In this document: piece after piece, positions 24,001-47,123 of the stretch
How positions within the stretch are numbered: the stretch's first letter is position 1
Layout: the number at the start of each line of letters is the position of its first letter
From: a virus
Strand: one strand, 5' to 3'
Length of the DNA: 64,000 bases
IMG/VR virus record: IMGVR_UViG_3300050821_005814
Span: 1 to 64,000 of that record
Notes under the pieces: model-generated
What the model saw: the letters and a program-made list of their open reading frames with translations, nothing else
Told to the model about the DNA's origin: nothing
The model's database searches: none
Program-made: the position numbers and the translations under genes

Positions 24001-24621
24001 GGCGCTAGCCTTCTGAATGGCTGGTGCACCGTCTGACCGCATATAGGTCGTGGCTGTGCCATTGATTGCAGTCGGTCCGGCCGTTGCCGTCGGGTTGGCT
24101 GCTGTCGGTGCCGTTGCAGGCGTCTGCCAGGTTGCTGCTGTGCTGCTCGTAGCCGTCAACACCTGCCCTGGACTGGGGGCTGTTGCAGCGCTGACGTTCA
24201 CGATGGTCGTCGCTGAGTTCAGCGCATTCGTTGACGTTGAAACGAGGTTGCCGGTGATGTTGGGACTGGGGATTGTCAACCCAGATGGCAAGGTCGTTGA
24301 AATCGTCGGGGCGCCTGACCCATTCGTCACCAGCACGCCATTGTTGGCAGTCGCTAGGTTAGCGACAACGCCAGCAAGGTTGTATAGCAGCCCATTGGTC
24401 GCACCGCCGCTGATCGTCGTTGTGCCGATGATGATTGCAGAGCTCCCGCTGCTCGAGCACGTCGGGCAGGAGATCTTGCGCAAGCCATACCCGGGGCCTG
24501 ATGGCGTCACGACTATCGGCGCGACGCCAACGATGTCAGGCGGTGGGGGGTTGGCTGCTACTGCGTTGTGCGCAATGACCAGCGCAAGCAGTATGGTAGC
24601 AATGGCTACAATGCGGCGCAT
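18088..24621 (-). CDS. Giant repetitive fibre/adhesin-like protein (2177 aa) with signal peptide
   Basis: MRRIVAIATILLALVIAHNAVA|; T/A/G/S-rich, nearly uncharged; several internal repeat families. Confidence 0.75.
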   Translation of the reverse strand: MRRIVAIATILLALVIAHNAVAANPPPPDIVGVAPIVVTPSGPGYGLRKISCPTCSSSGSSAIIIGTTTISGGATNGLLYNLAGVVANLATANNGVLVTNGSGAPTISTTLPSGLTIPSPNITGNLVSTSTNALNSATTIVNVSAATAPSPGQVLTATSSTAATWQTPATAPTAANPTATAGPTAINGTATTYMRSDGAPAIQKASAIQFGLVETDGSTISNAAGVISCTTATTGQLGCVRPDGATITITGGVITAVGGSATSIVPGTTTIGGGTPPCAIVNSAGTTMVCDAINAGVITAMANAVNAASGLLTFSIIGTSGALVPVLNGNNTWAGTQAHNDGSLALNGSTSGQVVLHAPATGGGAITFPAGAATLLAINGNGSGLTGLTYSQLPALAANQLLGALTATTPSGLAVPSCSTAGSALNWTSGTGFSCNTSITAASMALGGLTGLGANVATALAVAVGNAGAFVTFNGAGGTPSSIVLTNATGTAASLTAGIATTANALNSATTTIVVNGATAPGAGQVLTATSGTAANWQTPAAAPAGANPSATASNTAVNGVATTFMRSDAAPAIQLGSASQFGLVKVDGTTITASAGVISASGGSATTIIPGTTTITGATAPCAIVNSATTVMACDAISASVITAMANAVNAASGLLTFSIIGTSGATVPLLNGNNTYSGTSIFSGAVSHTGALPTQAAGTLGIAGNVTSPTLAANGEGDVYLLSTTGGLALIGQGSTNDLTLLNKAGSNVCVVPTGTTTFNCTGLQVGGVAVSTATAANPTATAGSAAVNGSATTFMRSDAAPAVALGSASTFGVVKVDGTTITASAGVISAVGGSATSITPGTTTISGGLSPCLLANSTGSTSACITLGTTFSMSGGALASLVPDTTHTVSASVANAGGQDNYNGSSITATGLAAPPANSTQLIVNQNASALTIANNSVTVNGLALSTTLRTNGFYVYTSNGTSWDAYGFPGFGTITTNALMKFADGSGAATASTITDAGAGVTIGSPTGGAQGAGTLNATGLFINGATALTIAGSNHNVLFNGSGALSGSPGFNFDGTSIISIGISGTATGTITFATLGGGVTTLVPTSSASSPTITLPSTSGTVTVLGNTVTGSSGTIVEATSPSIATPTFTGTVPSFTVATITGALTGHASADCALAACTMTGELTTVASATGTAGLNLPQGAAPTAPVNGDLWTTASGLFVRIAGATVGPLAASGGAPAFSSITSGTNTAAAMVVGSGATLAITGAAPTQAAGTLGLAGGITTPTLAANGEGDVYLLSTTGGLALIGQGSTNDISVFNKSGTSVCTVATGTTNWNCTGLQVGGTAVSTAAAANPTATAGSTANNGTATTFMRSDASPAVALGSASTFGLVKVDGTTITASGGVITASGGSATTITPGTTTVSGATAPCLIANSATTVMQCVALSSAFSISGGTLASLVTDSTHTVSAAVANPGGQDNYNGTSITATGPASPVANATQLITNQNATVLTIANNSVTVNGLALSTSLHTNGFYSYTFNGTSWDAYGFPGFGTITTNAVMKFLDGSGAAAASTITDAGAGVTVGSPTGGAQGAGTVNATGLFINGVAAVTSNNWTATAVTAIGATLTNSAGTLSCTTATASVIGCSRPDGTTITISAGVLTASGGSATTITPGTTTVVGATSPCVLQNPSTTVLSCGVVASTLLTSAATTHTTSATTANLGGEDDYNGSSITATLATLASGQTAFITDQNATTLTIANNSQTVNGLPLSTSLHTGGFYGYNFNTTTSQISAWGFPGFGTITSGALMKFLDGTGAATAGDLSGDITTAGALVTTLATVNANVGSFGDATHVGQFTVNAKGLITAAASVAITASASTITPGTTTISGATAPCAIVNSATTVMACDALGTGVVTALAVNVGSAGAFVTFNGAGGTPSALTLTNATGLPAGGLVAIAANTVLANATSGSASPTAFAMPSCSTASSALIYTSGTGIGCTANMATLNTADQTLSGGFNLTAFSIGTVTTGTTTIDCGKNPGQWMVDAGASTIAAPTSDGSCLVRVYLGGGFGTITFSGFNAEGTNTGDTIPSADKSTATATFTNASANIGWTNTLSVGQPVYFTNAGGGLPTNFTSGTVYYVIATGLSGTNIQVAATPGGTAITAGSAGTGTQTGHAAASYLLSISRVNGGAKYLASADQ

Positions 24622-25128: not shown

Positions 25129-28100
25129 TTAGATTTGCGAGCTGCGCGTCATGGTGCAGCGTCCGCCAATATCCCATGTGTTCACGGTCGGCGTGATCTC
25201 GAGATCAATTGCGCCAAGCGTTGTGTCAGCAGCAGGTGCCGCAATGGAGATACGCCCGCCTGCACTCGATGTCGCGTAGTCCTGCGTCCATGATGTGGGG
25301 AGCCCTATGATTTGCGTTGTCGATGCTGTCGCACCCATCTGCGCACCAAATGCGACATGCCAACCAATCGCATCGCTACCACCGTGATTCAAGCTTGTAG
25401 CTGCGACAGTGCAGACAACGTTCACAGTCGAGTGCGGCGGGAAGTTAAGCGTGTTGCCTGCAATCTGCAGTGTGACCGTCGCGCCTGATCCCCCACCACC
25501 TGACACGGCTGCAGTCGCCTCTGCAACGCAACCCGTTCCTGGATTGTTGACGCCAATGTTGCCAAGCGTACCGCCAGCACCGAGATCACCATTGACGATG
25601 GCACCCGTGCAGCCAGTAACTGTGATCGTCGGTAACGACGTGTAGCCAGTACCGCCCAAAGGTCGGTAGACGTTATAGATGTAGGAGCTCGCTGCCTGCC
25701 CATTGCTTGTCAGGCGCGTGTTGCCCGTGATGCCTGTCGCCTGGATCGTGCAAGCGACTATATGCGGTGCGCGATAGTCACAATTGCTGAAGGTCGTCGA
25801 TGCGACATCAACAGCCGACCCAAGCGAGCTACCAGGGCCACCCTGCGACTGAATGATTGCGCCGAATGCATTGTTGGGGAACCCGCCATACTCCTGCCCC
25901 AAGCACATGATGCACTTGTAGCCTGTGACGACTACGCCCGACTGCTCCCCCCATACCAACCCAAGGTCTGGTCCCAAAGCACCGAGTGCAGCGTTTGGCG
26001 TTGAGCCGCCAATGTGAACGTATAGTCCTTGCGTGTTGCGCATGTAGGTGACGCCAGACACCGCAAGCAAGTCGTTCTCGTAGTTTGCGCAACCATGCAC
26101 AAACGATGTACCAGCTAACTCTTCGCAATAGGATCCATAGGTCGTGTGCGCTCCCTGGTAGACGGTTGCTGAACCGCCCTCATTGCTTTGGATCCAAATC
26201 GCCGTGTTGATCGCTTGGTCAATCCCAGGGTTGGTGTGCGTGCCAACTGCTGTCATGCTTTGCGAGCTAGCGCTGATTGACTGGCTTAGGTTGTAGGTGC
26301 CGTTCCCACCGGTGCCTGTACCAAATGACACGATCGTCAGCGGAACAGGTGCACCTGAATAGGTGATCGTCTGACCAATGAGGAGCGGTGACCCAGAGTA
26401 TGCGCTGACGGTCAAGAGACCGCTTGCTATGACGCCAGTAAACGTGCCGCGCGTCTGCGCATTGCCGAGGATGTTGACGAATGCATTGAGGCCAATGCGA
26501 TTGCCGACCGCGACCGAACCATTCGGCGCGATATCGTCCTCAAGGTTGAAGAGCTGCGGGGCGTTCGTTGAGGTCGACGTGAACGAATCGCTGATCCGCG
26601 CATTCCATGCGAATGCAGTGCCTGACGTGATCGATCCTGTCACAAAGCCTGTCTCGCTCAACCATGCGGTGGGATTGGCATTGGACAGCACAGCCCCATT
26701 TCCCGTACGCGCGATGGTCGGACCAGCCGCAATGTGCGCCCAGGTGCTCTCGCCAGCAAAGTTGGTTACCGCACTAGCGTTGCCGATGTTGGTCGCAGTC
26801 GCGCTGGTCGTGCCGACGCCAATGGCATTTGCAATTGCATAGGCAAAGTTTACCTGTGCGCCAGTGCCTGTGCCGCCAAGGAGCGTGACAGGATTGGTCG
26901 GCGCTGCGCTTGCGTAGTGACCAGGCGTGACGATTGTGTACCCAACGATCTGATTGCTGCCGTTCACTGAGATCGACAGTATCGTGCCTGTCGATGGGTC
27001 ATACAGGTGATCCGTCGATCGGTAGTTGGTCCCGGTGACACCGCTCGGTACTGTCGCAGCGTTGACCTCTCCCCCACCAACATCGATCGTCGCAGTCGAA
27101 CCGGACGTCGATATCTTCATAGACTGTACGAGGAGCTGCCCAAGGTTGCTGACCTTGAACCCGCCAGTCAAACGGAACGCTGAGTCCGTGAACTCAACGC
27201 CGGACAAGTCGATACCGCGGCCTGTCTGCGGATTCACATAGCTACCAAAGCCTGAGAACTGATCAGGCGCTCCCGGGTTGTACCCAAAGAGCGTGCCACC
27301 TGCAGTCGCTGCGAAGGTGTTTCCCCCGCCTACTGCGTACACAAGGTTGAAAGGAGCAGTGCCTCCCGTAACGGAGATAGCTTGGTCTATTTCGTTCCCT
27401 TGCAAGTTGCCGTACCCGACGACATGCAGACCATAGCGCGTCGCAGCCGATGCGCCTGTGTAAATGCCGACGTCAATCTCGCGCCCCGCGCATCCGGACA
27501 AGTTGGTAGCGCCAGCGAAGCACCACATCTGGTCGCCGCCAGCATATACGAAGCCGGCTGACGATCCGCCATTAGGTGCTGTGCCGCCTTGGTTAGCTGA
27601 GATCGCAGTCGTCAAAACCTGCGCTTGCCACTGACGACCAGTATCGGATGTGCTGCCGATGAACGACTGAATGTTGAGCGATACGTTCTGCGCAGAGCGC
27701 GAACCGCTACCATTCAAGCTGACGTAGTTCCAAGTGCAGGTACCGTCGGCAATGCCAGTACCGGTGCCTGTAGGACCTGTGCCGCTGCTGCTTGATGTGC
27801 AGGAGGCAGCAGTCTCTGTGTAGTAATTCCCATTGGCTGCGCGATTGTTCCCCGTCACATAAGCCGTGCTCTGCTGCCAGGGTGCGCCGCCATATGCACC
27901 GCCGATCAAAAACCACGTCGCACCTTGCGATGCATTCGGGATAGCAGAGATGTCCTGATTGATGACTATCTTGTTGGCTGCGATCGTGCCAGATGACACA
28001 GACCCCGCAAGATTAAGCGATTCGAGGAACCCATACTGCGTGCCGATACCAGCTTGCGTGCCAGAGAAGGTCAACGTCCCACCAACGCCTGCGTACAGCG

Positions 28101-30936
28101 AGTTCGTCTGGATCTGGCTGCTGCCGCCTGTGACTACGAACGTGCTCCCCGCATTGCTAAAGTTCATGACAGCAATGCTGCCGATACCATAGCTTGGGTC
28201 ACCGAACGTGATGTGCGTCCCGTTGCCGCCAGGCGACACGATTAAGTTCGTCGTATTAGCTGACTCAAATGCTGGTGCAAACGTCTTGTTCGCAATGGAT
28301 ATGACAGCGCTGCTGTTGCCAATGTTGATTGCAGTCGCAACGCCAGTACCAAGGTTCAACGTTGTAGGCGCACTCCAGGTCTCAGCAATCGTCAGCCCCG
28401 ATCCATGCCCATTGGATGCCGCATAGGTGCCTGAAGTCGTCGCACCATAACCAACATTCTTAAGCGCTATGCCGCCTGCTTGCACCACACCGCCAATGAC
28501 GTTGGTCAGGTTCCAGCTGTTGCCATTCGCGTCATACACATCCTCACCTTGGATGTAGTTGTTGCCGCCTGCGGCAACTGACGATGCAGTTAGCTGATTG
28601 CGCGTGACGTCAATCGTAGCGCCATTGGATAGCAGCGCGATGGTGAGCGCGCCCGATGACAACGCCCCTGTACCTGCGACATTGAACCCGGCTGATTGCA
28701 GGAAGTTACCCGTGAAGTGCACATCAGGCTGGCAATACCCGCAGGCGGATGCCATCGGCTTGAAGGGCACAGTGTTGTCAGAAGCGTTGGCCGTCTGGCG
28801 ATACTCGCCGATTTGCGTGCCGCCGGAATCACCGGGGTACTGTCCGTCCGGACGCCCAAACGCGACAAGATTCAAACCGCCGACAGTGCTACTCGCTGCG
28901 ACGTTGTTCTGACTTGAGATGCCGATGAAGGTGTCATACAGGCCGCCTTGAACCGCATCACCAGTCTCATTGATGAACGTCCTGATTGCCTTGTAGCTGA
29001 GCACTGATCCGCCAAGGACCTTGATATTGTCCTCGGCACCAAACGCGCCATAAGCTGTTGTGTTCGCAGCGACAACTGTCTGCACACCGCCTGCATAGTA
29101 CTTCGCTAATGGATTCGTGCATCCAGCACATCCAGCGAATAGCCAAGATGCTTGCGCGTTGATCGATGCGCCGCTGGCCATATTGCCGTTCTGGTTCATC
29201 TGTGAAAGGTTGCCGATGCGAGCACCAGCAAATGCACTGCCACCAAAGTTTGCATAGACAGCAGTATCGGCAATCGCTTGCACAGTTGAGTTCACGTTGT
29301 CTGTGGGGACCGTAAACTTCATGAAGGCATCCTGACCACCGCTATAGGTGCCTGTGAAGCTTGCGGAGAATAGCGCGGGGTAAGGAATGGTCGTGCTGCT
29401 CAGCGTATAGGTCGAGCCGGGCGAACGATAGAACTGCGCATTCAGTAGGTTGTTGACAGTAAGGACATGGCCGGTTGTACCATTGACGGGCAACCCAGCG
29501 GACGAGAAGGTCATCGTCGCTATGGAGCCAACGCCGAAGGACCCCGCGCCAAATTGAATGTTCTGATTCGTGCTACCAGGACTAATGATGAGCGCTTGAC
29601 CGCTTCCGCCTAGGATCGAGCCGTTAGACCCTGTCGCATTGAACGTCGCAACGCCGTTGAACGTGGCACCATTCGTTACGGTCAGCCCTGTGCCTGACCC
29701 CGTGAAGGATGCAGCACCATTCGCGGACAACGTAGTGAATGCGCCAGTCCCTGGCGCTACATTGCCGATCGGCAGGGGTGACGAGAAGAGCGCTGTAATC
29801 CCAGTGCCTGTTACAGCGCCGCTTGCAGTCAACGTTGTGACGTTCGCGGCTGCTGGTACGCTCCCGCCTAGCACTGCGTTGTCGATTGTGCCGCCAGACA
29901 TTGTTGGCACGCTAAGCGTGAGACCTGCGATCGTTGTCGTCGTCGCGCCCAGCGTCAATGCAGTGCTGCCAAGCGTCAACCCCGCATTCGCCAACCCTGC
30001 ATTCGCTAGCGACCCATTGGTCACATGCGATAGATTGCTCACTGTCAGGGCGCCTGCATTATTGAGCGATGCGTCACCCGTGACAGCAACAGGCGTTGCT
30101 ATACCGAAGTTGTTTCCGATGAGGATGTCCGCATTGGCAAGGGCGCTCCCTTGCGGCGTGTACCCCAATGCCCCTGTGACATCACCGGACGTCAGCGTCA
30201 CAGCTCCCATGCGGCCAAACACGCTGACGACGTTAGCTGCAAGGTTGCCAAGCGAGCTTGTAAGCCCAGCACCGACACTGAGTGTCGCAAGCGCGCCCAA
30301 CCCCGACACGTCGGCGGCAGTCGGTTGCGTCAAATGCGCGTTACCGGCCGTGTCAATGTACGCGACAAATTGATGGGTGACGGGCGCGATTGCTTCGATC
30401 CCGCCCAAGCTCGACAATGTCGGGAGCGGCAAGTCTGCGCCAACGAGCAAGCGGAAGCTAGGCGCGCCGCCAGACCCCGCCGGCGCTCCATAAAAGCTGT
30501 TCTGCGATTGCGCAGCGGACAGCGTCAATGATTGCGCTGTGATCGTCGTCGCTTTGATGGTGTTTGGCGTTGTGATGCCAAGGGGCGGCGGCGTTGCGAA
30601 ATAGTTGATAAAGCCTGCTCCGCTGACAACACCTGACGCGGACAGCAGCGTGAACAACCCTTGATTGGGAACTGATCCGCCGATGACGCCAGGCGATCCC
30701 CAGGTGCCGCCCTGCAATGTCGCAGCGTCAAATGATCCGCCAGCTATCGCGTCAGCGATTTGCTGCACCGTGAATGCGACTGTCAGCCCGTTCTGCGCCC
30801 CTTGGATCAAATCCTGCGGGTTCACAGTCGTGACACGCTGACACGTCTGCGGCCATGCGCCAGTGCACGAGGCTTCCGCCCCATGCGCCGCGCACAAGCC
30901 TGCTAGCACGATCAATGCTGCTCGCAACCAACGCAT
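25129..30936 (-). CDS. Giant tail-fibre-like protein (1935 aa) with signal peptide
   Basis: MRWLRAALIVLAGLCAAHGAEA|; fibre motifs VVSVFGRMGAVTL, PSFRLLVGADLP, WQQSTAY..G, GTGYTSLPTITVTG. Confidence 0.75.
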   Translation of the reverse strand: MRWLRAALIVLAGLCAAHGAEASCTGAWPQTCQRVTTVNPQDLIQGAQNGLTVAFTVQQIADAIAGGSFDAATLQGGTWGSPGVIGGSVPNQGLFTLLSASGVVSGAGFINYFATPPPLGITTPNTIKATTITAQSLTLSAAQSQNSFYGAPAGSGGAPSFRLLVGADLPLPTLSSLGGIEAIAPVTHQFVAYIDTAGNAHLTQPTAADVSGLGALATLSVGAGLTSSLGNLAANVVSVFGRMGAVTLTSGDVTGALGYTPQGSALANADILIGNNFGIATPVAVTGDASLNNAGALTVSNLSHVTNGSLANAGLANAGLTLGSTALTLGATTTTIAGLTLSVPTMSGGTIDNAVLGGSVPAAANVTTLTASGAVTGTGITALFSSPLPIGNVAPGTGAFTTLSANGAASFTGSGTGLTVTNGATFNGVATFNATGSNGSILGGSGQALIISPGSTNQNIQFGAGSFGVGSIATMTFSSAGLPVNGTTGHVLTVNNLLNAQFYRSPGSTYTLSSTTIPYPALFSASFTGTYSGGQDAFMKFTVPTDNVNSTVQAIADTAVYANFGGSAFAGARIGNLSQMNQNGNMASGASINAQASWLFAGCAGCTNPLAKYYAGGVQTVVAANTTAYGAFGAEDNIKVLGGSVLSYKAIRTFINETGDAVQGGLYDTFIGISSQNNVAASSTVGGLNLVAFGRPDGQYPGDSGGTQIGEYRQTANASDNTVPFKPMASACGYCQPDVHFTGNFLQSAGFNVAGTGALSSGALTIALLSNGATIDVTRNQLTASSVAAGGNNYIQGEDVYDANGNSWNLTNVIGGVVQAGGIALKNVGYGATTSGTYAASNGHGSGLTIAETWSAPTTLNLGTGVATAINIGNSSAVISIANKTFAPAFESANTTNLIVSPGGNGTHITFGDPSYGIGSIAVMNFSNAGSTFVVTGGSSQIQTNSLYAGVGGTLTFSGTQAGIGTQYGFLESLNLAGSVSSGTIAANKIVINQDISAIPNASQGATWFLIGGAYGGAPWQQSTAYVTGNNRAANGNYYTETAASCTSSSSGTGPTGTGTGIADGTCTWNYVSLNGSGSRSAQNVSLNIQSFIGSTSDTGRQWQAQVLTTAISANQGGTAPNGGSSAGFVYAGGDQMWCFAGATNLSGCAGREIDVGIYTGASAATRYGLHVVGYGNLQGNEIDQAISVTGGTAPFNLVYAVGGGNTFAATAGGTLFGYNPGAPDQFSGFGSYVNPQTGRGIDLSGVEFTDSAFRLTGGFKVSNLGQLLVQSMKISTSGSTATIDVGGGEVNAATVPSGVTGTNYRSTDHLYDPSTGTILSISVNGSNQIVGYTIVTPGHYASAAPTNPVTLLGGTGTGAQVNFAYAIANAIGVGTTSATATNIGNASAVTNFAGESTWAHIAAGPTIARTGNGAVLSNANPTAWLSETGFVTGSITSGTAFAWNARISDSFTSTSTNAPQLFNLEDDIAPNGSVAVGNRIGLNAFVNILGNAQTRGTFTGVIASGLLTVSAYSGSPLLIGQTITYSGAPVPLTIVSFGTGTGGNGTYNLSQSISASSQSMTAVGTHTNPGIDQAINTAIWIQSNEGGSATVYQGAHTTYGSYCEELAGTSFVHGCANYENDLLAVSGVTYMRNTQGLYVHIGGSTPNAALGALGPDLGLVWGEQSGVVVTGYKCIMCLGQEYGGFPNNAFGAIIQSQGGPGSSLGSAVDVASTTFSNCDYRAPHIVACTIQATGITGNTRLTSNGQAASSYIYNVYRPLGGTGYTSLPTITVTGCTGAIVNGDLGAGGTLGNIGVNNPGTGCVAEATAAVSGGGGSGATVTLQIAGNTLNFPPHSTVNVVCTVAATSLNHGGSDAIGWHVAFGAQMGATASTTQIIGLPTSWTQDYATSSAGGRISIAAPAADTTLGAIDLEITPTVNTWDIGGRCTMTRSSQI

Positions 30937-33076: not shown

Positions 33077-34156
33077 TCAGATGCCGTCCGCGTACTGCAT
33101 CGTCTCAGGGTACACGAGCTCGATGACGCCCAAGCGGCCCCAGTACTCAACGACCTGATGAAGGCCGCGGAACTGAATGGGGGTACGCTGTAGCGGCACG
33201 AGCGGATAGCGCACACGGTCCTTGTCCTTCGTGTACGCGACCATGCGGTTGGTACCGCCAGCCCCTAGGCCCGGCAGCCATTTGACTGGCTGAATGTCCA
33301 GCTCGCGCCCATAAGAAGAGTTGGTGATGCTGTTCTTCTTGATGTACTCGATGATGGAGATATTGCCGGCGTTCGACACCTTCTGCGACGACAAGGTGCT
33401 GAAGTGGATCGGCGGCAGTCGCAGGTGCGTGGGGATCAACGCATATCCAGCGTTCGTCCAAGCCTGCGTCAACAGGAAGTTTACGTCGGCGACGATTTCG
33501 TCTGGCGACTTTGTGATCACACCAGTCGCTGTCACCCACGTCGTTACGCCTTGTGTGCCAAGCGGCACGTTGTAGGGCGTCACGAGCGCGCTGTTGAACA
33601 TGCCCGTCTTGTTGTAGTCGGTATCACCGACATACACCATCTGGTCGATGTCCATCTGGTACTTGAGCTTCATGCCCGCGTACTTCTGCTGATCAACCGG
33701 ACGACCGGTCTTCTCAGCCGACTGCAGTTCGGGCAACGTCCACTTCAGTTCGGTGCCCCACAGCAGCAGCGGGTTGACGACCTTGCCGATGTCCAGCGAG
33801 ATGCCGGAGATCGCAGTCGACTCCTTGCCGATCCAGTTCTTACCGGCCGGGTTGATACCACCAGGCGCGGCGAAGGTCGAGATCGTGTAGGACGAAAACT
33901 CGTCCGCTGCTGTCACGTCTTCCCGCAGATCGATGTCACGACCCCAGGAGACCTGAACGAGGGGCTCATGCAGAGTCTGGTCGAGCCGCTCAAGTTCGCC
34001 GATGAGAAACGCACCCGTACTGTCGATCGTCATCTGGGTGGCTGCATCGTAAGTCATCATCTGGTCCTTCGTGAACTGTCGCACACGAGGACGGATGATT
34101 GCTGGGCGTGAAAGCATGGTCGTATCCGCATACTCAATGCGGCGGAGATTGCTCAT
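33077..34156 (-). CDS. Major capsid protein (DUF2184/encapsulin-like HK97 fold)
   Basis: DSTGAFLIGELERLDQTLHEPL..WGRDIDLREDV, GRPVDQQK, DIDQMVYVGD, YWGRLG.IE.VYPET motifs. Confidence 0.92.
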   Translation of the reverse strand: MSNLRRIEYADTTMLSRPAIIRPRVRQFTKDQMMTYDAATQMTIDSTGAFLIGELERLDQTLHEPLVQVSWGRDIDLREDVTAADEFSSYTISTFAAPGGINPAGKNWIGKESTAISGISLDIGKVVNPLLLWGTELKWTLPELQSAEKTGRPVDQQKYAGMKLKYQMDIDQMVYVGDTDYNKTGMFNSALVTPYNVPLGTQGVTTWVTATGVITKSPDEIVADVNFLLTQAWTNAGYALIPTHLRLPPIHFSTLSSQKVSNAGNISIIEYIKKNSITNSSYGRELDIQPVKWLPGLGAGGTNRMVAYTKDKDRVRYPLVPLQRTPIQFRGLHQVVEYWGRLGVIELVYPETMQYADGI

Positions 34157-34795: not shown

Positions 34796-36400
34796 TCAGG
34801 CGGTGCCGTATGCCTTTCTGTTCATCTCGTTGATGGATGCGACAGTCTTGGCAGCAGTGTCAGCAGTACGACCGCCGCCGAACGTGTGCGCTGAGTTCTG
34901 CATGCCAGCCATCGTTGACGCTGCATTGAATGCGATCGAAATCGCGTCACACGTCCATGCAGTGTCATTGAACGCCGGACGGCGCGTGCCGATGACATCC
35001 TTGACGACCTGCTGCGTCTTCTCCGCCTTGTAGGCAGCATCGAGCACGCGACGCTTGAAGCTGCACATTGCGTCGAATGTCTTGTTGGCAGCCGCGTCCG
35101 CAACAAACGTCGGGAACGTCATGCCTGGCACAAGCTTCTCCGCTTTGGAGACCATGTCATCGAATGGTGCGCGCAGGTTGGTCGAATCACCGACCGCTGC
35201 CCGGCGACGGCGATCGCTTGTACCGCTTGCACGCGGCAAGCTTGGTATATGGCGACCATAGGCTTCGCTGACATCGATCTCGGTCCAACCTTCGGAGTCT
35301 TCCGCCTCCTCCTTGTTGCGCTCACGCCGACGACCGGACTCTTCTTCGCCCTCGAGCTCGCTCTCCGACTCGTCACGCATGCGCGCATCGCGGCTGCGAC
35401 GGTCACGCGTGCGCCGACTGCGATCACGCGTACGCCGGCGATCGCCCATCTCTTCGCGATCGCCGTCCTCGTCATCGTCGTCGTCGGGTTCCGCCCCTTC
35501 CTCCTGCGCGAGCATCGTCAGGATCTTCTCGATCGCATCGAGACGCTGCAAGACATTCGCCATGGGGTCACCGCCAGCAGCAGCGCCGCCTGCGGCAGCA
35601 CCGCCACCTTCCTCGGCATCGTCAGCAGGACGCTCAACAGCACCCCCGCCATTATGCAGGTGCACGTGAACCCCGCCCCCGCTCTCGCCGCCCATCATCT
35701 CATCCGAGATGATCTCACCAAGCATCTCAGGGTCGTGCTCAGCCTCTGTCACGGCAGCGAGGGCGTCGACAACGCTACCCCGCTTGACAGCCCTGCGAAA
35801 CCGATCCATGAAACGCGCACGCTGAACAGACTTTGGAAGTGCCATAGCTTGATCTCCAATTGCACAATGAGGACCGCACCGCCCCCTGTCGACGAGTGCG
35901 ACGTGGTTGCCGACAATGTTGAGGCAGCGTGCGCGGCCGGGCCCAAGCTGCTCATACTCTGCGTCGTATCCGGCCGAAATCTCCTTCTTGCCTGAGTTGA
36001 TTGCCTCAATCGCCTTCTTGTTGGTGACCAGGATGTCACCGAACATGAAGTCGTTGTCATACTGCAGCCCATCGCCACGACGGGGATTGAGGATGGTCCC
36101 CATTTGATAGTCGTGGCAGTTGTCGGGCGTCAGCATACCAATGGGAGGGTGGTCGTCAACGAACGGTTTCCCATTGTAGCTCGCAAGCGTCTGAGGCGCG
36201 AACACCTCCTCCGCATCGCGTTCGACTATAATCAGCCCATCCTTCCCAGCCTCGACTGCCGGGAGTTCATTTGCTGCATAGACTTGTGTGCCAATGCGCG
36301 CGATTGGCACATCCGTGATCAGCAAGAACCCCTCAGGCGTCAGAGCCCTATGGTCGGAGAGCGTCGAGGTTACATAGAACCTCTGCGTTGGCCCTGCCAT
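34796..36400 (-). CDS. Prohead protease/scaffold (DUF2213-like)
   Basis: TPEGFL...PIARIG, GKPFVDDHP, KKEISAGYD, GNHVALVDRGRCGP.CAIGD, then acidic/R-D-rich scaffold region. Confidence 0.9.
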   Translation of the reverse strand: MAGPTQRFYVTSTLSDHRALTPEGFLLITDVPIARIGTQVYAANELPAVEAGKDGLIIVERDAEEVFAPQTLASYNGKPFVDDHPPIGMLTPDNCHDYQMGTILNPRRGDGLQYDNDFMFGDILVTNKKAIEAINSGKKEISAGYDAEYEQLGPGRARCLNIVGNHVALVDRGRCGPHCAIGDQAMALPKSVQRARFMDRFRRAVKRGSVVDALAAVTEAEHDPEMLGEIISDEMMGGESGGGVHVHLHNGGGAVERPADDAEEGGGAAAGGAAAGGDPMANVLQRLDAIEKILTMLAQEEGAEPDDDDDEDGDREEMGDRRRTRDRSRRTRDRRSRDARMRDESESELEGEEESGRRRERNKEEAEDSEGWTEIDVSEAYGRHIPSLPRASGTSDRRRRAAVGDSTNLRAPFDDMVSKAEKLVPGMTFPTFVADAAANKTFDAMCSFKRRVLDAAYKAEKTQQVVKDVIGTRRPAFNDTAWTCDAISIAFNAASTMAGMQNSAHTFGGGRTADTAAKTVASINEMNRKAYGTA

Positions 36401-37999: not shown

Positions 38000-38335
38000 C
38001 TATGTTCCGCGAAAGATACCGTCTGTCAGCCACCCATGCCATTTGCATCCATGCGTACGCAAAATAGATGGTGTAGTCGTTGGCTTGTCTTCACTTCCGT
38101 TCCATGCCCATGCCTTCCCATATGCAGGATTGACTGTGACCGCTGCGATAGCGCCGCACCCGCATGGACATGTGAACCACAACGACGCAATCTTACCATC
38201 CGATCCGCGCATCCAGACGCCTGTGCCAGGTTCTAAGTCGCGACGGTAGTATACGCCATCTTCATAGTGCCGCTCCTCGTACTCGAGAAACAGCACTCGA
38301 TAGTCGACAAGCTTGAGCGGCACATCCGCCATCAC
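38000..38335 (-). CDS. DUF6527-like Cys/His protein
   Basis: FTCPCGCG...WAWNG...PTTTPSI....CKWHGWLTDG signature. Confidence 0.7.
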   Translation of the reverse strand: MMADVPLKLVDYRVLFLEYEERHYEDGVYYRRDLEPGTGVWMRGSDGKIASLWFTCPCGCGAIAAVTVNPAYGKAWAWNGSEDKPTTTPSILRTHGCKWHGWLTDGIFRGT

Positions 38336-38571
38336 ACACCCTTGTGAAAGTGAATGTGTATGCCGCGCTTTGGCTTGAGCTTTTTGACTGCAGGCGCAGC
38401 AGTCGCTGCTTCATCATCATCAGCAGCAAGCGGATCAAAGCCAAGCAACGCGACTACATCGTCTGGCGTCTTCGCTAGCGGCTCATCATCATCCGAACTG
38501 TCATCTTCGGACGGCATCACCTGCTGCTCGCTGATTGCGCCAACATGCACGTCAGGTAGGTCGTCAGACAT
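38332..38571 (-). CDS. Small acidic head-region protein
   Basis: Start ATG 38571; TPDDVVALLGFDP motif; C-terminal IHIHFH. Confidence 0.55.
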   Translation of the reverse strand: MSDDLPDVHVGAISEQQVMPSEDDSSDDDEPLAKTPDDVVALLGFDPLAADDDEAATAAPAVKKLKPKRGIHIHFHKGV

Positions 38572-39535
38572 TTGCATTGCCCCACGGCGCAAACACGACA
38601 GGCGAGATGTAGCTTTGCAGCGCGACGGTTGGCGTGTTGCCAAGCTTCGCTGCGACGACTTTCGCTACCTGCATGACAGCCTTCTTGTAGCCCGTCGCAT
38701 TTGCAGGCGGTGCGACCTTCGTGACTTCCTTCATCGCAGTCTTGGTGCCAACGAGTGTGCGAAAGTCTTTCGTCTTGAACCCGCCGCCGAATGAGTGCAC
38801 GTAGTCGAGCAAGCTCTTCTGATTGACGTTACCAAACAGGCGGCCGTTGTTTCCCGCTGCCTGCTTACGCTCGCGCAGCATCTTGCTGAGCGATGGGTCT
38901 TCAACTGGTAGGTCCAACGCAACGCCCTTCTTACCAACAAACTTGAGCGACACCTTATTACCCATGACGACTACATGCTGCCCCTCAAGTGTCGTCGCAC
39001 CATATGCCTTCACCTTCGCCTGCGTGTCCGTGTCCGACCCAGGACGCACGCCCATATCCATGATGAGCGCTGTAACATCGCCCAATGCACGATGCGTCGG
39101 GTTGCTGGACTTACGCATCTTCTCATTCTGCAAGCGAATGGTAGACAGCTTCGCGTCAAGTGTCTTGATGCGTGCGAACTTAGCAGCCGCCTGCTTCGCT
39201 GCATGCGACTCGGAGTAGACGTATTGCGTGCGTCCCGCCGCATCCTTGCCCGTCACCTGCAACGGCGCCTGGGGGTCTTCACTATAGGTGACATCCTTCC
39301 ATGCGGGAGGGATGCGTAGCTTGGCTATGTGCGCTGGCAGCTCACCGCCACCCTTCGCCTTGAAGCCGTTGGGGGTCTTCTCCGCTGACGTGTGCCCGCT
39401 AGCACCGCCGCCTTTGGGTGCAAACTCGCCAGCGTTCTCCGGTTGACCCCGCGGATGCTGCGACGACTCCCATGAGACGTCGACAACATGCACAAGCGAT
39501 CCCTTACTATCTAGCCAGAGGTGCACGCTAGGCAT
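38564..39535 (-). CDS. DNA topoisomerase IB (bacterial/poxvirus type) with N-terminal HPRG leader
   Basis: IPPAW.DV, LQVTG.DAAGR.QY.Y, GVRPG (Arg), YGATTL, FVGKKG (Lys), KDFRT (Arg), LGNTP....SYI (Asn, Tyr); ATG 39535 overlaps MuF stop. Confidence 0.9.
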   Translation of the reverse strand: MPSVHLWLDSKGSLVHVVDVSWESSQHPRGQPENAGEFAPKGGGASGHTSAEKTPNGFKAKGGGELPAHIAKLRIPPAWKDVTYSEDPQAPLQVTGKDAAGRTQYVYSESHAAKQAAAKFARIKTLDAKLSTIRLQNEKMRKSSNPTHRALGDVTALIMDMGVRPGSDTDTQAKVKAYGATTLEGQHVVVMGNKVSLKFVGKKGVALDLPVEDPSLSKMLRERKQAAGNNGRLFGNVNQKSLLDYVHSFGGGFKTKDFRTLVGTKTAMKEVTKVAPPANATGYKKAVMQVAKVVAAKLGNTPTVALQSYISPVVFAPWGNANV

Positions 39536-40322
39536 TTGGAATGACAGGCTCCGGATAGCAGCGACAGTTGTAGATAGCACCGGGATGCGCGCGTTCGCCG
39601 TTGCTACCAGCGATTGGCGGGGCATCCCAGCGATGAAACGTACCCTCAAGCTTCTTATGCAGCGGACGCACATTCCAGTCGTGGGCCGTACGCCAGATAT
39701 ATCCCTCAGACCCGATCTGCTTAGCGCGCGCTTGCGTGAGCGTTGTCGCAGCGCGAGTCGTTTCAGTGCGCGCTATCGTGTCAGCGCGCGACTTAGCAAC
39801 CTCACCCGACAACATGATCTGCTTTGCAAGTACTTCTGCCCGCTGACCGCTATAGAGCTGACCCGTCGCAATGGCTTGCACACGCTTCGCTGCTTCAAGG
39901 GGCAGCGATGTGATCAAGTCAACCTGCTCATCAAGCAACTGCCGCATGATCTCGCCAGTCGGCGTTTCAGCGAGCTCCTTGCGCAGCTCAAGCCCCATGA
40001 AGCGCGCGTACTGCGCCCATGCTTTCTCATCGCGACGTGACACGTCAGCAAGTAGTGACGCGGATATCGCGCGCGCCCAGGGACGCAGGATGACGGAATA
40101 CCGATCAAGCAAACGCGTCAATGTGTCCAGGTCATGCGGACTACCGCTCGCCATACCCTTGACGAGATCGCCTATGTGCTTTGCAACGCTGCGTAACTGC
40201 ACCGTGAACTTAACCTCAGCATTGCGTACTCTAGCAAATGCCTCGCGCTCCTTGCGCGTATCCCGCCGCGCGTCACCCACTCTAGCTGCGGGCAACGACA
40301 ACGGCGGGAGAGCATCAGGCAT
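39528..40322 (-). CDS. MuF/SPP1 gp7-like head morphogenesis protein
   Basis: RADTIARTE, GYIWRTAHD..VR..H..LEG, HPGAIYNCRC signature. Confidence 0.9.
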   Translation of the reverse strand: MPDALPPLSLPAARVGDARRDTRKEREAFARVRNAEVKFTVQLRSVAKHIGDLVKGMASGSPHDLDTLTRLLDRYSVILRPWARAISASLLADVSRRDEKAWAQYARFMGLELRKELAETPTGEIMRQLLDEQVDLITSLPLEAAKRVQAIATGQLYSGQRAEVLAKQIMLSGEVAKSRADTIARTETTRAATTLTQARAKQIGSEGYIWRTAHDWNVRPLHKKLEGTFHRWDAPPIAGSNGERAHPGAIYNCRCYPEPVIPNA

Positions 40323-41040: not shown

Positions 41041-43098
41041 CTACTTCACGGCGCGAACTGGCGGCTCACCTCGCCCATAGCGATGGTTGTCAAGCCATCC
41101 CTTGAGCGCTGCGACAGTCATCTGGCGAATAGTGCCGATGCGGTCTGATCCCCGACCATCAGAGAACGCTGCTTTGTATGCAGTCAGCGCTTGCTCGCGC
41201 GACGAGAAGCGCAGCATGCACTTGTGCTCATCGAACACACCGCTATCTGGGTTCAATTGCTCGATCACCCAACACTGCTCCTGCTTCTCGTCGTCGCCGA
41301 TGAAGCAATCCATTTGCTCGCGAGGACCTTCAGCCGATGATGTGCCACTAATATACCCATAATGCGCAGGCATCACTGTCGACCAGCCATACCCTTTGCG
41401 CGCCTCGCCTTTCGGCGTCTCGATGATGCATGTCAGCGGCCCGACATCGACCATGCTGAGCGCATCCATCTGCCGCGCGCGAATGATGTGGCGCAGGAGT
41501 AGCGCATTGCCTGACAACGGGATGCCTTGATCGTCTGTGTCGTCGGGTTTCTCGCTTTCAGCCTGCGGTCCCTCGAGCAGCGGTTCTGTGTTCTCACCAG
41601 CAGCGGGGGTCTGGGTGCTTTCAGGCATCGCGGGAGCAGCGCCGCTCATGCCTGGACCTCCCTGCATTGGCATCCCTGTCTGCGGATCGACCTCTGGCTG
41701 TCCAGGCAGAGGCGCTAATGCGTCGGCCTGTTCCGCCATGTCGAGATCTTCGTCCGTGATGTTGCTGCCAAACCCTGTGATGCGCGAGGACTGGCGAATC
41801 TCCATCATAGCGGTCTTCAGCGTGAAGACGCGATCCTGCAGTAGATTGCTCGTCGCACCTGCGATCGTGCCGGCGATCTGCGACTTCTCGAGCTCAGTCA
41901 ACTGCCATAGCGGCGCAAACTTGTAGTTGAACCCATCTGGCAGCGGTTCACCAAAATGCGACTGATGCGTGATGTGGAATAGGCGTGTGACAAACCGCCG
42001 CAAGCGCGCTTCCTGTTGGCTGCGCGTACCATCATAGTAATTGCGCAGGTCGCTATCGCCAGTCGAGTTCAGTCCTGCAGGCGACTGCGCGAACAAGCGC
42101 GTCATGGGAATGTCAGCGGCACCCGCGACCTGCTGCCCGAATTGCAGCATCATGTCGGACAGCCCAGCAAACGTGTATGACTGCGACTCAAAGTCGTCGG
42201 CTTTGTCAAGGACCGTCATGCCCTCAATCGACTGCATGACACGTATGAGCTGCATGAACTGCTTGACAGCATCCGCCATCTTGCCGCCAGCAGCGATGAT
42301 CTCCCGCAGGTTCTCAATCTTGAGTACGCGTAGGTGCGCTTTGTAGATGAGCTGCGCAGCGCCTTGCGTTGACGAGTCGAATGCGATCATGCGATCGAAC
42401 ACCGGCTCGATCACCGACGCACCCCAACCATTCTCAGTGATCAACTGCCAGTAGGGCAGCTCAATGCCATCCAAGCGTATGCAACGCGAATGGTGAATCT
42501 TCATATTGGGGATTGACCGCGCATCAGCGACCGTGTCATAGAACTTTGGCATACCAAAGTCAGGCCCGAAGTCAGTCACGGGGTTTTCGATATGCGGCCA
42601 TACCATCCAGCGATCGAGGACGAGTATTCCCTTGAACTGATTTTTGCTGACAGTCTCAACGCGCAAGGGGGTTGAGATGTCCTGCCCCTCAATCATGATG
42701 ACGCCAAGCGCACCGCCATACAGGCGCGACCACTTGAGCACACTATTGAGCCGCGACCAAATCTGCAAGTCGTTCCAATACTGGTTCAGCGAGTCAATGC
42801 GGTCGGGCGGCATGTCCGACTCAATGTTGACCCCTTCCCGCGTCATGTCGTCAGCGACTACGTCAACGACCTTGCGCACGAGCCATGCGCCACGATACAT
42901 CCACTCGAGTAGCGTATGGTTGCGGCTGAGCGGATTAAACCCATAGGTCGACGCGGACGAAAGGTTGTTCGTGCCATACCCAAGGTTAGCAGCAAAGTTC
43001 TGGAAGCTGTCTGCTGTACGCACACGCGCGATGGAGTCGCTCGTGTATGCCTGCACGCGCACGCGCGGCTTGATAGGTGCGATAGGCGCGTCACTCAC
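41041..43098 (-). CDS. Portal protein (DUF1073-like) fused to C-terminal inorganic-pyrophosphatase-like domain
   Basis: MYRGAWLVRKVVDVVADDMTREG, WSRLYGG, IHHSR, IPMTRLF.QSPAG..STG.SD.RNYYD; C-term IETPKG...HYGYI.GT...DCFIG...DEHKCML. Likely start GTG 43098 (GTGA overlap); track start 43164. Confidence 0.88.
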   Translation of the reverse strand: MSDAPIAPIKPRVRVQAYTSDSIARVRTADSFQNFAANLGYGTNNLSSASTYGFNPLSRNHTLLEWMYRGAWLVRKVVDVVADDMTREGVNIESDMPPDRIDSLNQYWNDLQIWSRLNSVLKWSRLYGGALGVIMIEGQDISTPLRVETVSKNQFKGILVLDRWMVWPHIENPVTDFGPDFGMPKFYDTVADARSIPNMKIHHSRCIRLDGIELPYWQLITENGWGASVIEPVFDRMIAFDSSTQGAAQLIYKAHLRVLKIENLREIIAAGGKMADAVKQFMQLIRVMQSIEGMTVLDKADDFESQSYTFAGLSDMMLQFGQQVAGAADIPMTRLFAQSPAGLNSTGDSDLRNYYDGTRSQQEARLRRFVTRLFHITHQSHFGEPLPDGFNYKFAPLWQLTELEKSQIAGTIAGATSNLLQDRVFTLKTAMMEIRQSSRITGFGSNITDEDLDMAEQADALAPLPGQPEVDPQTGMPMQGGPGMSGAAPAMPESTQTPAAGENTEPLLEGPQAESEKPDDTDDQGIPLSGNALLLRHIIRARQMDALSMVDVGPLTCIIETPKGEARKGYGWSTVMPAHYGYISGTSSAEGPREQMDCFIGDDEKQEQCWVIEQLNPDSGVFDEHKCMLRFSSREQALTAYKAAFSDGRGSDRIGTIRQMTVAALKGWLDNHRYGRGEPPVRAVK

Positions 43099-43394
43099 TT
43101 GCTTGACATCTCCTGCTGCTGCTGACGTAGTAATGCCAGCGCTTGGCTCAGCTTGCTGCTGCACTCGTCAAGGCGGTCGGCAGTCAGCGCACGCACATCC
43201 TCGTTCTTGTTAGCGTACTCAATGATGGAGTCGAAGGTCCGGGGTTGTTTAGGCTTCACGATAGCAGCGGGATGCGGCGCGCACCCCTGCTCGAGATCTG
43301 CAGGAAGGTGCATGTAAGGCGCAGTCGTTGCTTGCTGCGGCGCATGCGTGCAGCAGCTAAACATCATCAACAGGCTTGCAGGAACCAGACGCAA
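43095..43394 (-). CDS. Putative o-spanin/Rz1-like lipoprotein
   Basis: Short hydrophobic leader ending LMMFSC, Pro-rich segment, LPADL..GC..P and L.EC motif. Confidence 0.45.
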   Translation of the reverse strand: MRLVPASLLMMFSCCTHAPQQATTAPYMHLPADLEQGCAPHPAAIVKPKQPRTFDSIIEYANKNEDVRALTADRLDECSSKLSQALALLRQQQQEMSSK

Positions 43395-44012: not shown

Positions 44013-44384
44013 CTAATGCAGGTCGCTAAGAATTGACTCCTTGTGCGTGATCCGAGGCTGGATCATGCCAAAGAACATGCCTTGAATCAGCGTGCCGTAC
44101 CAATGCCAGATGCCTGCCTCGCTTACCGGAGATACAAACACAGGCGTGTTGAGAGTGACATTAGGCCATTCCCCGCGCACTGTCCACTCAGGACGTCCGC
44201 GCCCATGACCAACAAAATGTATAAGACCGTGCCGACCACAACCACACGGGCATGCAAAGCGGACAGCGGATGGCGTTTCATCGTCATCCCAGTACAAGAA
44301 GTGGAACGCACCCGGCTGGCGCTTGATGATGTCTGTCGACGTCGCTGGCACCTCGAACGCTTGCACTTGTAAGCCAGTCCTCAT
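44013..44384 (-). CDS. Second DUF6527-like protein
   Basis: Start ATG 44384 with GAGGGGG RBS; FACPCGCG...W...G....TL...WHWYGTL. Confidence 0.5.
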   Translation of the reverse strand: MRTGLQVQAFEVPATSTDIIKRQPGAFHFLYWDDDETPSAVRFACPCGCGRHGLIHFVGHGRGRPEWTVRGEWPNVTLNTPVFVSPVSEAGIWHWYGTLIQGMFFGMIQPRITHKESILSDLH

Positions 44385-44718
44385 TTGATCCCCCCTCAGA
44401 AGGCAGCAATGGTACGGTGCGCGTGCCGAAAGGTATCTCGCCGCGCACACGATCAACCATCTCATTGCTATTGGGCGGCAAGTACATGCGCTTCCAGTCA
44501 GGCGTTGTCGGGGGCGGCGCGGCATTAGCTGCCAATGCTTGCGTGATCTGAGTATGACTCGGTAATCCCAAGCGTAAGCGGCGGTCAGCAATCGTGTGTA
44601 CGTTGATACCCATGCGTTCAGCTATGTCAGTGTTACGCAGGGGCGGGCGGAGATTGCAGAGAGCTATTAGCTCAGCATCACGCTTAGGCCAGTACAAAGA
44701 CGATCCACGTATAGGCAT
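44284..44718 (-). CDS. GcrA-like HTH protein
   Basis: W...DAELIAL.....NTDIAERMGINVHTIADRRLRLGL matches the GcrA N-terminal HTH pattern. Confidence 0.5.
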   Translation of the reverse strand: MPIRGSSLYWPKRDAELIALCNLRPPLRNTDIAERMGINVHTIADRRLRLGLPSHTQITQALAANAAPPPTTPDWKRMYLPPNSNEMVDRVRGEIPFGTRTVPLLPSEGGSNEDWLTSASVRGASDVDRHHQAPAGCVPLLVLG

Positions 44719-45652: not shown

Positions 45653-45795
45653 AACCGGTACCGGACATAGCTCATCCGCCGCCCCAGCCGATACTCATTC
45701 CATTGCTGATGCCAGAGCGCACTTGCTTCCTGCGATGTCGTGATGCAGATCTCCCACCTGCCATCGCGGAACATGTAGACTGTATAGCGTATCAT
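45649..45795 (-). CDS. Small hypothetical protein (48 aa)
   Basis: Not in track; ATG overlaps terL stop and TGA overlaps next ATG (ATGA at both ends). Confidence 0.45.
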   Translation of the reverse strand: MIRYTVYMFRDGRWEICITTSQEASALWHQQWNEYRLGRRMSYVRYRL

Positions 45796-47123
45796 CCTGC
45801 CAATTTCTCCCAAACGCCAAGACCACCACGCTTGGTAATATACCCGTCAAGCGAGTAACCGACCGCATCCCACCCATGGTTGTGCGCGTCGACTACTATC
45901 GGCAGTATCAGCGGCTGCTTTGTGACTGGATCAATACGCTTCTCGTCAGTCTTGTAGGAATAGAGCCTCGCCTCCTGCGCCATACCGACGCAGCGCTCGT
46001 GAATGTGAATCTTGCCAAAGCCCTTCAGGTGCGAGATGCGGTCTTCAACGCACCCCTGCCACTTGAGTGCAGCAGACATGTTGATGCCTTGCCGCAATAC
46101 ATAGCTGATCGTCTCCGGCCGCGCGTTGTCCGCCTTCACCGGCCAGTCAGTGATACCAGGAATGCCCTCGTACTGCATGCCGCTGATTGGTGCGCGGCCG
46201 CCCTTCAGCGCGTAGGGGATGTCTTCCAACTCAACGCCAACGCCGAAGAACTCATGCGTGATCCACAAGTCGTTGTTGTGGATGTAGCTGCGTATGCCGC
46301 ACAGCGGATCGTTCGCAAAGCCAAAGTCGACGCCGTAGAAGTACTTGTCGACGATCTCAGGTTCCTCGAACCCTTCGATCGCATAGCGGTCCTTGAAGAT
46401 AGCTGCTGACGAAATATGCCGGCACATACCCTCCCACACCCAGTCGTACGCGTCTGCGTCTGTCAGCATCATTTGCTTGCGCAGACGATTGAGCGACTCA
46501 GGGAACCATGGATTGTCCTGCCAGCCTACCTTCTCGACGAGTGCGTCTGTCGAATGACCTGTGACAAACGTCGCATACATGTAGTCGTCGGGATCAACGG
46601 CATTGAAGCTGATCCAAATCTCCGGGTTGATACCGCCACGCTCGCCTCTGATCGTTGGGTCGAGGAGCAGCATGGACTCGCGTGATGTCGTCTGCCCTTC
46701 CTCAATCCAGCAAATCGTCACACCTTCAAGCGATCGTATCTCAGCGATGTTACGCTTGAGTCCGCGGAAGATGAACTCACTACCCGTCAGCTTGCATCGT
46801 ATCGTGCGGTCGGTGATCTCGAAGAACGCTGCTAGTCCGAGTGCGCGTATCTGACCTGCAATGACACGATGCACGCTGTCAGCGATACTCGTCTGGAACT
46901 CACGCGTGCAGAGTATCAAATGTTTCTGCACCATCGCACGCCCAATTGCCGCACGTGCAAATGATCGGCTCTTAGCCCCGCCTCGACCGCCCCAGGCGAC
47001 CCGATATCTTACCGCCTCACCCGCGTCGGTCGTGCTCGCGGATAACAGCTTGCGAAAGCGCGGCGGGAAGCGGATGCGAAGAGGACCAGGACCTTCTGAA
47101 TCTGTGAGAGCGTCGAGAGGCAT
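45792..47123 (-). CDS. terL: Terminase large subunit (PBSX family)
   Basis: Walker A GGRGGAKS, CTREFQ.SI.DS, Walker B WIEEG, PTIR, DNPWFP, GVDFGF..DP, NHGWDA. Confidence 0.95.
   Translation of the reverse strand: MPLDALTDSEGPGPLRIRFPPRFRKLLSASTTDAGEAVRYRVAWGGRGGAKSRSFARAAIGRAMVQKHLILCTREFQTSIADSVHRVIAGQIRALGLAAFFEITDRTIRCKLTGSEFIFRGLKRNIAEIRSLEGVTICWIEEGQTTSRESMLLLDPTIRGERGGINPEIWISFNAVDPDDYMYATFVTGHSTDALVEKVGWQDNPWFPESLNRLRKQMMLTDADAYDWVWEGMCRHISSAAIFKDRYAIEGFEEPEIVDKYFYGVDFGFANDPLCGIRSYIHNNDLWITHEFFGVGVELEDIPYALKGGRAPISGMQYEGIPGITDWPVKADNARPETISYVLRQGINMSAALKWQGCVEDRISHLKGFGKIHIHERCVGMAQEARLYSYKTDEKRIDPVTKQPLILPIVVDAHNHGWDAVGYSLDGYITKRGGLGVWEKLAG

Follow-up and report, generated by a model that had tools for sequence, protein, structure and literature searches.

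What does a type IB topoisomerase (TopIB) do when its gene lies among the head genes of a tailed phage? This question is raised by an uncultured phage whose genome is deposited as IMG/VR virus record IMGVR_UViG_3300050821_005814 (106,805 bp, 100% complete according to CheckV). The stretch analysed here, referred to as the window, comprises the first 64 kb of this record (positions 1 to 64,000). Between 0.3 kb and about 47.6 kb, all of its genes lie on the minus strand, among them the TopIB gene and a small acidic partner gene. The answer that we favour, with moderate confidence, is that a catalytically competent TopIB is a cargo of the phage head, which is brought in by its N-terminal leader, bound by the partner and delivered together with the DNA. 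Capsid loading is the best reading of the enzyme, and the unfused form encoded in the window is probably loaded as well. The elements concerned are the following:

38564..39535, minus strand: TopIB gene, 323 amino acids, consisting of leader, N-terminal beta domain and catalytic domain
39386..39535, minus strand: leader (residues 1-50) with a short alternating strand VHLWLD..VHVVDV, the tag and a Gly-rich linker
39422..39472, minus strand: tag W22-x-E-x-x-H-P-R-G-x5-G-x-F38, which is conserved in unfused relatives
38621..39196, minus strand: catalytic domain (PF01028, residues 114-305)
38609-38611, minus strand: codon of Tyr309, just outside the PF01028 domain
38332..38571, minus strand: acidic partner gene, 79 amino acids, whose ATG overlaps the TopIB stop codon

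The TopIB open reading frame (ORF) is open throughout and matches the Pfam families PF01028 (Topoisom_I; 85.2 bits, cut-off 23.7; residues 114-305) and PF21338 (Top1B_N_bact; 37.6 bits, cut-off 27; residues 69-98). The best solved relative is the TopIB of Deinococcus radiodurans (2f4q/3m4a, E=1.5e-31), and the variola virus enzyme 2h7f is found with an E-value of 2.5e-11. Residues R164, K202, R259, N300 and Y309 align to R137, K174, R239, N280 and Y289 of 2f4q, which we take to be the catalytic set of the D. radiodurans enzyme, and all five are invariant in two alignments of 17 (A1) and 79 sequences (A3). An intact TopIB with the full catalytic set, as proposed in an earlier reading of the sequence alone (the sequence-only reading), is thus confirmed at the level of sequence by both domain matches, the alignment with 2f4q and the invariant residues, and the enzyme is of the bacterial/poxvirus type. 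It shares its two-domain R-K-R-N-Y architecture with the enzymes of D. radiodurans and of the poxviruses (variola 2h7f, vaccinia 1a41), and from its full set of catalytic residues it is apparently catalytically competent. Members of the TopIB family relax DNA in the absence of ATP or Mg. In an AlphaFold2 (AF2) model of a natural relative, which is 52% identical to the window protein, the TopIB body reaches a predicted local distance difference test score (pLDDT) above 90, and a Foldseek search with this model retrieved 3m4a, 2f4q and the DNA-bound variola enzyme 2h7f (template modelling score 0.70). Both modelled natural relatives (52% and 45% identity with the window protein) show the two-domain clamp fold.

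The leader lies ahead of the N-terminal domain with its first beta-hairpin and is without counterpart in the matched part of the D. radiodurans enzyme; the presence of about 50 extra N-terminal residues with an HPRG tag and a Gly linker, as described before, could be verified. In the window, the tag reads W22-E-S-S-Q-HPRG-QPENAGEF38 and is followed by KGGG runs, and residues 16-63 match the C-terminal extension of portal proteins of PHROG 113 (E=2.3e-6). The general motif, [FW]-x-E-x-x-H-P-R-x(2-9)-G-x-[FW] with Gly runs, is located at the N-terminus of unfused TopIBs and exactly at the portal/TopIB and DUF2213/TopIB junctions of fused ones, and one homologue (P0154) has a second copy ahead of an ADP-ribosyltransferase (ART) domain. 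As a regular expression, it gave 104 matches in the plus-strand ORFs of 59 related loci versus none in the minus-strand ORFs; 63 of the matches precede TopIB, and the others precede other, unidentified ORFs or domains. TopIB is C-terminal in 283 of 324 fetched proteins, with the tag upstream in 246. A leader feature common to TopIB and to otherwise unrelated head-module ORFs is present in these phages. In the six frames of the 106.8-kb genome itself, the tag occurs once only, on TopIB, and the idea that it is a code common to several proteins of this phage was rejected because of this single occurrence. The leader had no match in GenBank phages (tblastn).

Internal proteins of phage T4 carry a short N-terminal capsid targeting sequence, by which unrelated proteins are loaded into the prohead. 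The leader described here resembles it in being short, N-terminal and attached to otherwise unrelated proteins; however, no sequence similarity is claimed, the HPR tag is also found internally at domain junctions, and its targeting role is putative. The tag may be an address, a cleavage site or both. Several observations on relatives concern its distribution. One phage (L005, IMG/VR 3300048759_000012) has four more ORFs with an N-terminal tag, at 2699, 8980, 15814 and 17516; these tags are near-identical (FDESKHPRGQPENKGEF or FNEGDHPRGQPKNKGEF) and lie 15-19 residues from the N-terminus, which suggests that this phage possesses an entire set of tagged cargo proteins. In the natural polyproteins of L054, L055, L061 and L064, which are fused to DUF2213, the order tag, cargo, (acidic partner segment), tag, next cargo is repeated, with up to five tags in a single ORF of 1767 amino acids. 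In L054, L061 and L064, only a few residues separate the end of the partner segment, LGFDP[LF], from the F-V-E-S-E-HPR tag that follows; in L055, this distance is about 25 residues. Relatives carry the sequences HVHLH or VHVYLE ahead of the tag.

The proteins to which TopIB is attached in other phages were identified by a search of 5.8 billion clustered proteins and an exhaustive HMMER pass over 1.84 billion representatives. Besides 2,733 homologues whose length is similar, the clustered-protein search revealed 556 that are longer; the best 120 of the longer homologues are mostly portal (PF06381)-TopIB fusions, and in the others TopIB is located on DUF2213 or MuF. Many of these 120 additionally bear NUDIX, InPase, ART or Zeta-kinase domains. 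The HMMER pass gave 5,611 matches at E<=1e-3 and 1,156 representatives at E<=1e-30, and about 86% of the best 150 cluster representatives are longer than 400 amino acids. In IMG/VR, a relative is encoded on 189 contigs, and 80 related loci were analysed in a survey of TopIB beside or fused to MuF and portal genes, which the sequence-only reading had called for. TopIB is fused to a head protein in 34 of them, namely to the portal in 30 (26 portal-TopIB, 4 portal-InPase-TopIB), to DUF2213 in three (DUF2213-TopIB-partner) and to MuF in one. In the other 46, no head-protein carrier was recognised; some of these ORFs are cut by contig ends or carry unidentified extensions, and one of the 46 is fused in frame to the partner. 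Since the portal, MuF and the prohead protease, the carriers of TopIB, are all components of the procapsid interior, TopIB is read as head cargo. A coupling to MuF, which had been proposed for the window, does not hold as a rule: in contrast to the 30 loci with a portal carrier, only four of the 80 (L017, L035, L062 and L066) have a separate TopIB gene that directly follows MuF, at a distance of no more than about 210 nt. The neighbourhood of MuF is thus incidental to TopIB, with the portal as its commonest carrier.

The portal fusions also bear on a different explanation, in which TopIB is loaded but works inside the head near the portal, where it would release DNA twist during packaging or ejection. 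Most carrier-fused relatives tether the enzyme to the C-terminus of the portal, which faces the capsid interior, and the independence from ATP and Mg would permit action within the capsid. However, the same polypeptides often contain ART, NUDIX, Zeta or InPase domains, whose substrates are presumably molecules of the host cell, and the tag at every junction suggests that the cargo is released. Neither point is decisive, but we regard a function inside the head as unlikely and favour delivery of the enzyme with the DNA.

Among 50,697 GenBank phage records, only one weak TopIB match was found, Top1E of Bacteroides phage BS162P1 (OP172706.1, L186). The view that a TopIB is unusual for a tailed phage is therefore correct for cultured phages, but it does not apply to metagenomes, which contain a large clade. 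BS162P1 top1E (OP172706.1:1827-2591) likewise encodes a phage TopIB catalytic domain, with 31% identity over 46% of the query; it differs in its length of 254 amino acids and its position among small hypothetical genes at the genome end, has no annotated portal, MuF or head gene within the 8.5 kb examined, and forms a very long branch outside the viral clan. In 185,579 species genomes, the viral-type TopIB was detected on only about nine contigs of metagenome-assembled genomes (43-55% identity), whereas cellular TopIBs are at most 37% identical. In one bacterial phylum, a sample of 401 genomes yielded a TopIB in 77, a tally that includes one unpublished genome (G388), which is used nowhere else.

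The acidic partner gene, which was absent from the sequence-only reading and is added here, begins with an ATG that overlaps the TopIB stop codon (ATGTCTGA). Its product of 79 amino acids features M-S-D-D-LPDVHVG, a run of acidic residues, TPDDVVALLGFDPL and a basic tail, the last residues of which are IHIHFHKGV. Neither the protein nor the ORF spanning the partner gene has a Pfam or PHROG match, and the partner had no match in GenBank phages (tblastn). In the surveyed loci, however, it is common: a separate partner ORF begins at or over the TopIB stop in 70 of 80, the partner is fused to TopIB in frame in 4 of 80, and the six loci that lack it mostly end at a contig border. The separate ORFs begin with the motif LPD[VA]HFG...DWR...DDDEEL..TP.DV[IV]AMLGFDP. 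When IMG/VR was searched with the partner only, 55 loci were found, 53 of which have TopIB directly upstream. The partner is nearly specific to TopIB and is its most conserved companion. The median net charge of its first 55 residues is -13 (-17 in the window copy), and its median length is 52 amino acids with carrier-fused and 216 amino acids with unfused TopIB. In five loci with unfused TopIB, it forms the N-terminus of DUF2213 (four) or MuF (one). We infer that the partner is an inhibitor and/or an adaptor of TopIB. The C-terminus of the window copy (38332-38400, minus strand) is an extra basic tail, KKLKPKRGIHIHFHKGV, which ends in an alternating His strand and is lacking in most homologues; the strand resembles the alternating strand VHLWLD..VHVVDV that opens the TopIB leader.

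The two genes overlap in much the same way at their junction (...AAATGTCTGA) as TopIB and MuF do upstream. A conserved frameshift between TopIB and the partner was considered and rejected, as the partner is read in frame +1 with respect to TopIB in 35 loci, in frame +2 in 30 and in frame 0 in five. In all cases in which the N-terminal motif of the partner could be placed, it is preceded within a few codons by a start codon, at or near the TopIB stop, which argues for translational coupling rather than frameshifting.

A gene for an enzyme that might disturb DNA topology and, right downstream, one for a small, very acidic and closely coupled partner could also be a toxin-immunity pair, which would mainly serve competition or exclusion and not the infection by the phage itself. 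In temperate phages, MuF polymorphic toxins followed by immunity genes have been described (Jamet et al. 2017, PMC5576092), and the window resembles them in having a variable enzymatic module with MuF and then a small cognate gene. However, TopIB is not fused to MuF in the window, an immunity function of the partner is only putative, and the word 'topoisomerase' is absent from PMC5576092. The MuF protein of the window carries no toxic C-terminal domain and ends at its own stop after the NCRC motif. Moreover, the genome is large, looks like that of a virulent phage and encodes its own polymerase, and the partner frequently forms the N-terminal part of another head or cargo protein instead of being a free immunity protein. 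A toxin-immunity pair is therefore very improbable, and a head cargo with a bound partner remains the preferred explanation.

As assumed in the sequence-only reading, the gene order places TopIB in a head operon, of which the following genes could be assigned:

45792..47123, minus strand: large terminase, first gene of the head operon
41041..43164, minus strand: portal with C-terminal InPase domain (PF06381 and PF18823, the latter at residues 573-691)
39528..40322, minus strand: MuF minor head protein, 264 amino acids (PF04233, 61.5 bits; phrog_324 head morphogenesis, 2e-62)
39528..39535, minus strand: stop/start overlap of MuF and TopIB, 8 nt, ATGCCTAG, with TopIB in the +1 frame
38000..38335, minus strand: DUF6527 (PF20137)
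34796..36400, minus strand: DUF2213 head maturation protease, scaffold-like (PF09979, 8e-45; PHROGs 530 and 12864, 'head maturation protease')
33077..34156, minus strand: major capsid protein (phrog_264, 2.8e-80)

The terminase is followed by the portal-InPase gene, two small ORFs, MuF, TopIB, the partner and DUF6527, and then by three ORFs, the DUF2213 protease, a phrog_563 structural protein and the major capsid protein, which is 55-59% identical to capsid proteins of cultured phages. TopIB is thus located inside the head module, right after MuF and between the portal on one side and the DUF2213 protease and the major capsid protein on the other. No terminator-like sites were found on the minus strand between 33000 and 48000, which is weak evidence that the head operon is a single transcription unit. 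In Burkholderia phage Magia, a cultured relative with a head module of the same type, MuF is directly followed by an unannotated gene, which occupies the position of the DUF2213 protease gene, with no gene in between. Judged by this difference in gene order, the 3.1-kb stretch from MuF to the protease in the window is an accessory or insertion slot that holds the cassette. Together with the InPase on the portal, which sits behind a long Pro/Gly/Gln-rich linker, the free tagged TopIB gives this phage two enzymes in its head module; the InPase-bearing arrangement of the portal has been reported for Burkholderia phage BcepF1 (PMC5512222). The head operon contains two DUF6527 (PF20137) paralogues, one at 38000-38335 (minus strand), which directly follows the partner gene with a 4-nt overlap, and one at 44013-44591 (minus strand), which is placed between terminase and portal. 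Downstream of the head genes are two giant ORFs, 18088-24621 and 25129-30936 (both minus strand; 2177 and 1935 amino acids), without a Pfam match at E<=0.001.

The junction with MuF raised the question of whether both proteins are produced as one polypeptide by programmed frameshifting. As stated before, the TopIB ATG overlaps the MuF stop, the overlap comprising 8 nt (...AAATGCCTAG): the ATG (39535-39533) lies inside the MuF sequence CCA AAT GCC TAG, with the stop codon at 39530-39528. In favour of a fusion, the TopIB frame is open upstream to 39673, i.e., for 46 codons, as the sequence-only reading had observed, and genuine MuF-TopIB fusions exist elsewhere (P0222, P0231 and L040). However, 46 or more open upstream codons are found at 18% of the +1-frame positions in the genes of this phage, and thus the openness is at chance level; the 46 codons are rich in Cys and Arg, as is common in off-frame translations. 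A fusion would further need a +1 or -2 instead of a -1 shift, and a shift within the overlap would remove the conserved C-terminus of MuF, whose domain is complete including the NCRC motif, its own stop following 10 residues past NCRC. Unfused relatives have their own Met at equivalent positions, 15-45 residues ahead of the tag; in L017, an 18-nt gap separates TopIB from MuF; and the natural MuF fusions have a different linker. The frameshift fusion, which had been left open before, is hence scarcely credible.

The proposed role can be described as follows. TopIB would be made late, from the head operon, and its leader of about 50 residues, with the strand and the W-x-E-x-x-HPR...G-x-F tag, would bring it into the procapsid. 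The leader may act as a capsid-targeting peptide, as a protease-processing peptide or as both, in the latter cases possibly with cleavage at the tag. The translationally coupled acidic partner would bind TopIB and, up to the delivery of the DNA, most likely keep it inactive or act as an adaptor. Once ejected, TopIB would relax supercoils in the host DNA or in the incoming phage DNA, for which neither ATP nor Mg would be needed.

Several findings speak against this role. The TopIB of the window is fused to no head protein, and its packaging is deduced from the common tag and from its relatives. No cultured phage with the cassette was found in the 50,697 GenBank phage records, and a TopIB tethered to the portal could remain in the capsid instead of being injected. 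In an AF2 model of a natural TopIB-partner fusion (9 paired rows), the partner tail is disordered with a pLDDT of 34-45. A second natural fusion (22 paired rows) gave a partner tail with a pLDDT of 69-91 and a helix on DVVAALGFDP, which suggests that the partner makes an ordered contact with TopIB. Finally, TopIB is the sole topoisomerase found in the genome, with no match to type IA or IIA topoisomerases anywhere in the 106.8 kb, and a role in intracellular replication or transcription is possible.

This last point leads to the explanation that TopIB is an ordinary intracellular topoisomerase that serves the replication or transcription of the phage or the processing of its concatemers and has no place in the virion, its position in a late operon being coincidental. 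Besides being the only topoisomerase gene found, it encodes a separate polypeptide in this phage, as would be expected in that case. However, it is located 27 kb from the gene of the family A DNA polymerase, which lies beyond the window on the opposite strand (66850-67995, plus strand, within an open frame of 892 amino acids), its leader tag is common to TopIB and the portal-fused forms, and the clade is dominated by fusions to head proteins. A purely intracellular function is thus distinctly unlikely, and a capsid-borne, delivered enzyme is preferred. Whether this holds beyond the window is more tentative: it is possible, though at present rather doubtful, that capsid-borne TopIBs, which are addressed by the HPR tag or by fusion to the portal and silenced by the partner until delivery, are common to a widespread group of uncultured tailed phages.

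A topoisomerase that is carried in the virion is known from the poxviruses, and this serves as a functional analogy for the phage TopIB. In comparison with the bacterial and poxvirus enzymes, the phage TopIB is only about 30% identical, belongs to a separate viral clan (Shimodaira-Hasegawa approximate likelihood ratio test, SH-aLRT, 99) and has a tagged leader of about 50 amino acids, a dedicated acidic partner gene and a location in a head operon; we know of no counterpart of the partner gene in bacterial or poxvirus TopIBs. 

Enzymatic domains attached to portal or MuF proteins, predicted to be packaged and injected, have been described as polyvalent proteins by Iyer, Burroughs, Anand, de Souza and Aravind (2017, PMC5512222), who described the InPase domain on portals and the 2H and PBECR domains on portals as well as on MuF. 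The window resembles this in having an enzyme among the head genes and a portal that bears an InPase like that of BcepF1. It differs in that its TopIB is free and carries the tag only, and the tag and the acidic partner are absent from PMC5512222. In the main text of that study, 'topoisomerase' occurs only in a reference title, and no TopIB cargo is named. No report of a TopIB in phage heads or of a virion-carried topoisomerase of a tailed phage was found in the searchable literature.

The relationship between viral and cellular enzymes was analysed in a maximum-likelihood tree built from 74 sequences of viral contigs, 38 cellular ones sampled from one bacterial phylum, and the Bacteroides phage protein. 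The tree is unrooted and contains no poxvirus, eukaryotic or archaeal sequences, so that no direction of transfer can be claimed from it; a further alignment of TopIB rows and partner fragments (A2) was discarded because MAFFT misplaced the fragments. Viral and cellular sequences are split with SH-aLRT values of 99 and 97 and are about 1.3 substitutions per site apart, and the viral TopIB clade is distinct from cellular TopIB. The window protein is the sister of L002, an ORF with no recognised carrier domain and with an unidentified N-terminal extension, and groups with L001 and L019, in which TopIB is fused to the portal. At least 16 changes of carrier state fall on the tree, some of them reflecting ORFs truncated by contig ends, which indicates that fusion and fission occur frequently. 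For bacterial TopIB, an origin from a viral group 'not yet discovered' was proposed by Forterre and Gadelle (2009, PMC2647321), and the viral TopIB clade is a candidate for this lineage.

The existence of a large viral clade makes the origin of the patchily distributed bacterial TopIB testable. The window represents the unfused form and indicates that the cassette can exist with the tag alone while the portal bears another enzyme, the InPase. The tag is a candidate for a portable address for capsid loading, and the partner is a candidate for a natural TopIB inhibitor. If TopIB is indeed loaded and delivered, the phage could reset DNA supercoiling at entry without ATP, which would bear on early transcription, host shut-off and defence evasion, and the enzyme would be the phage counterpart of the poxvirus virion topoisomerase.

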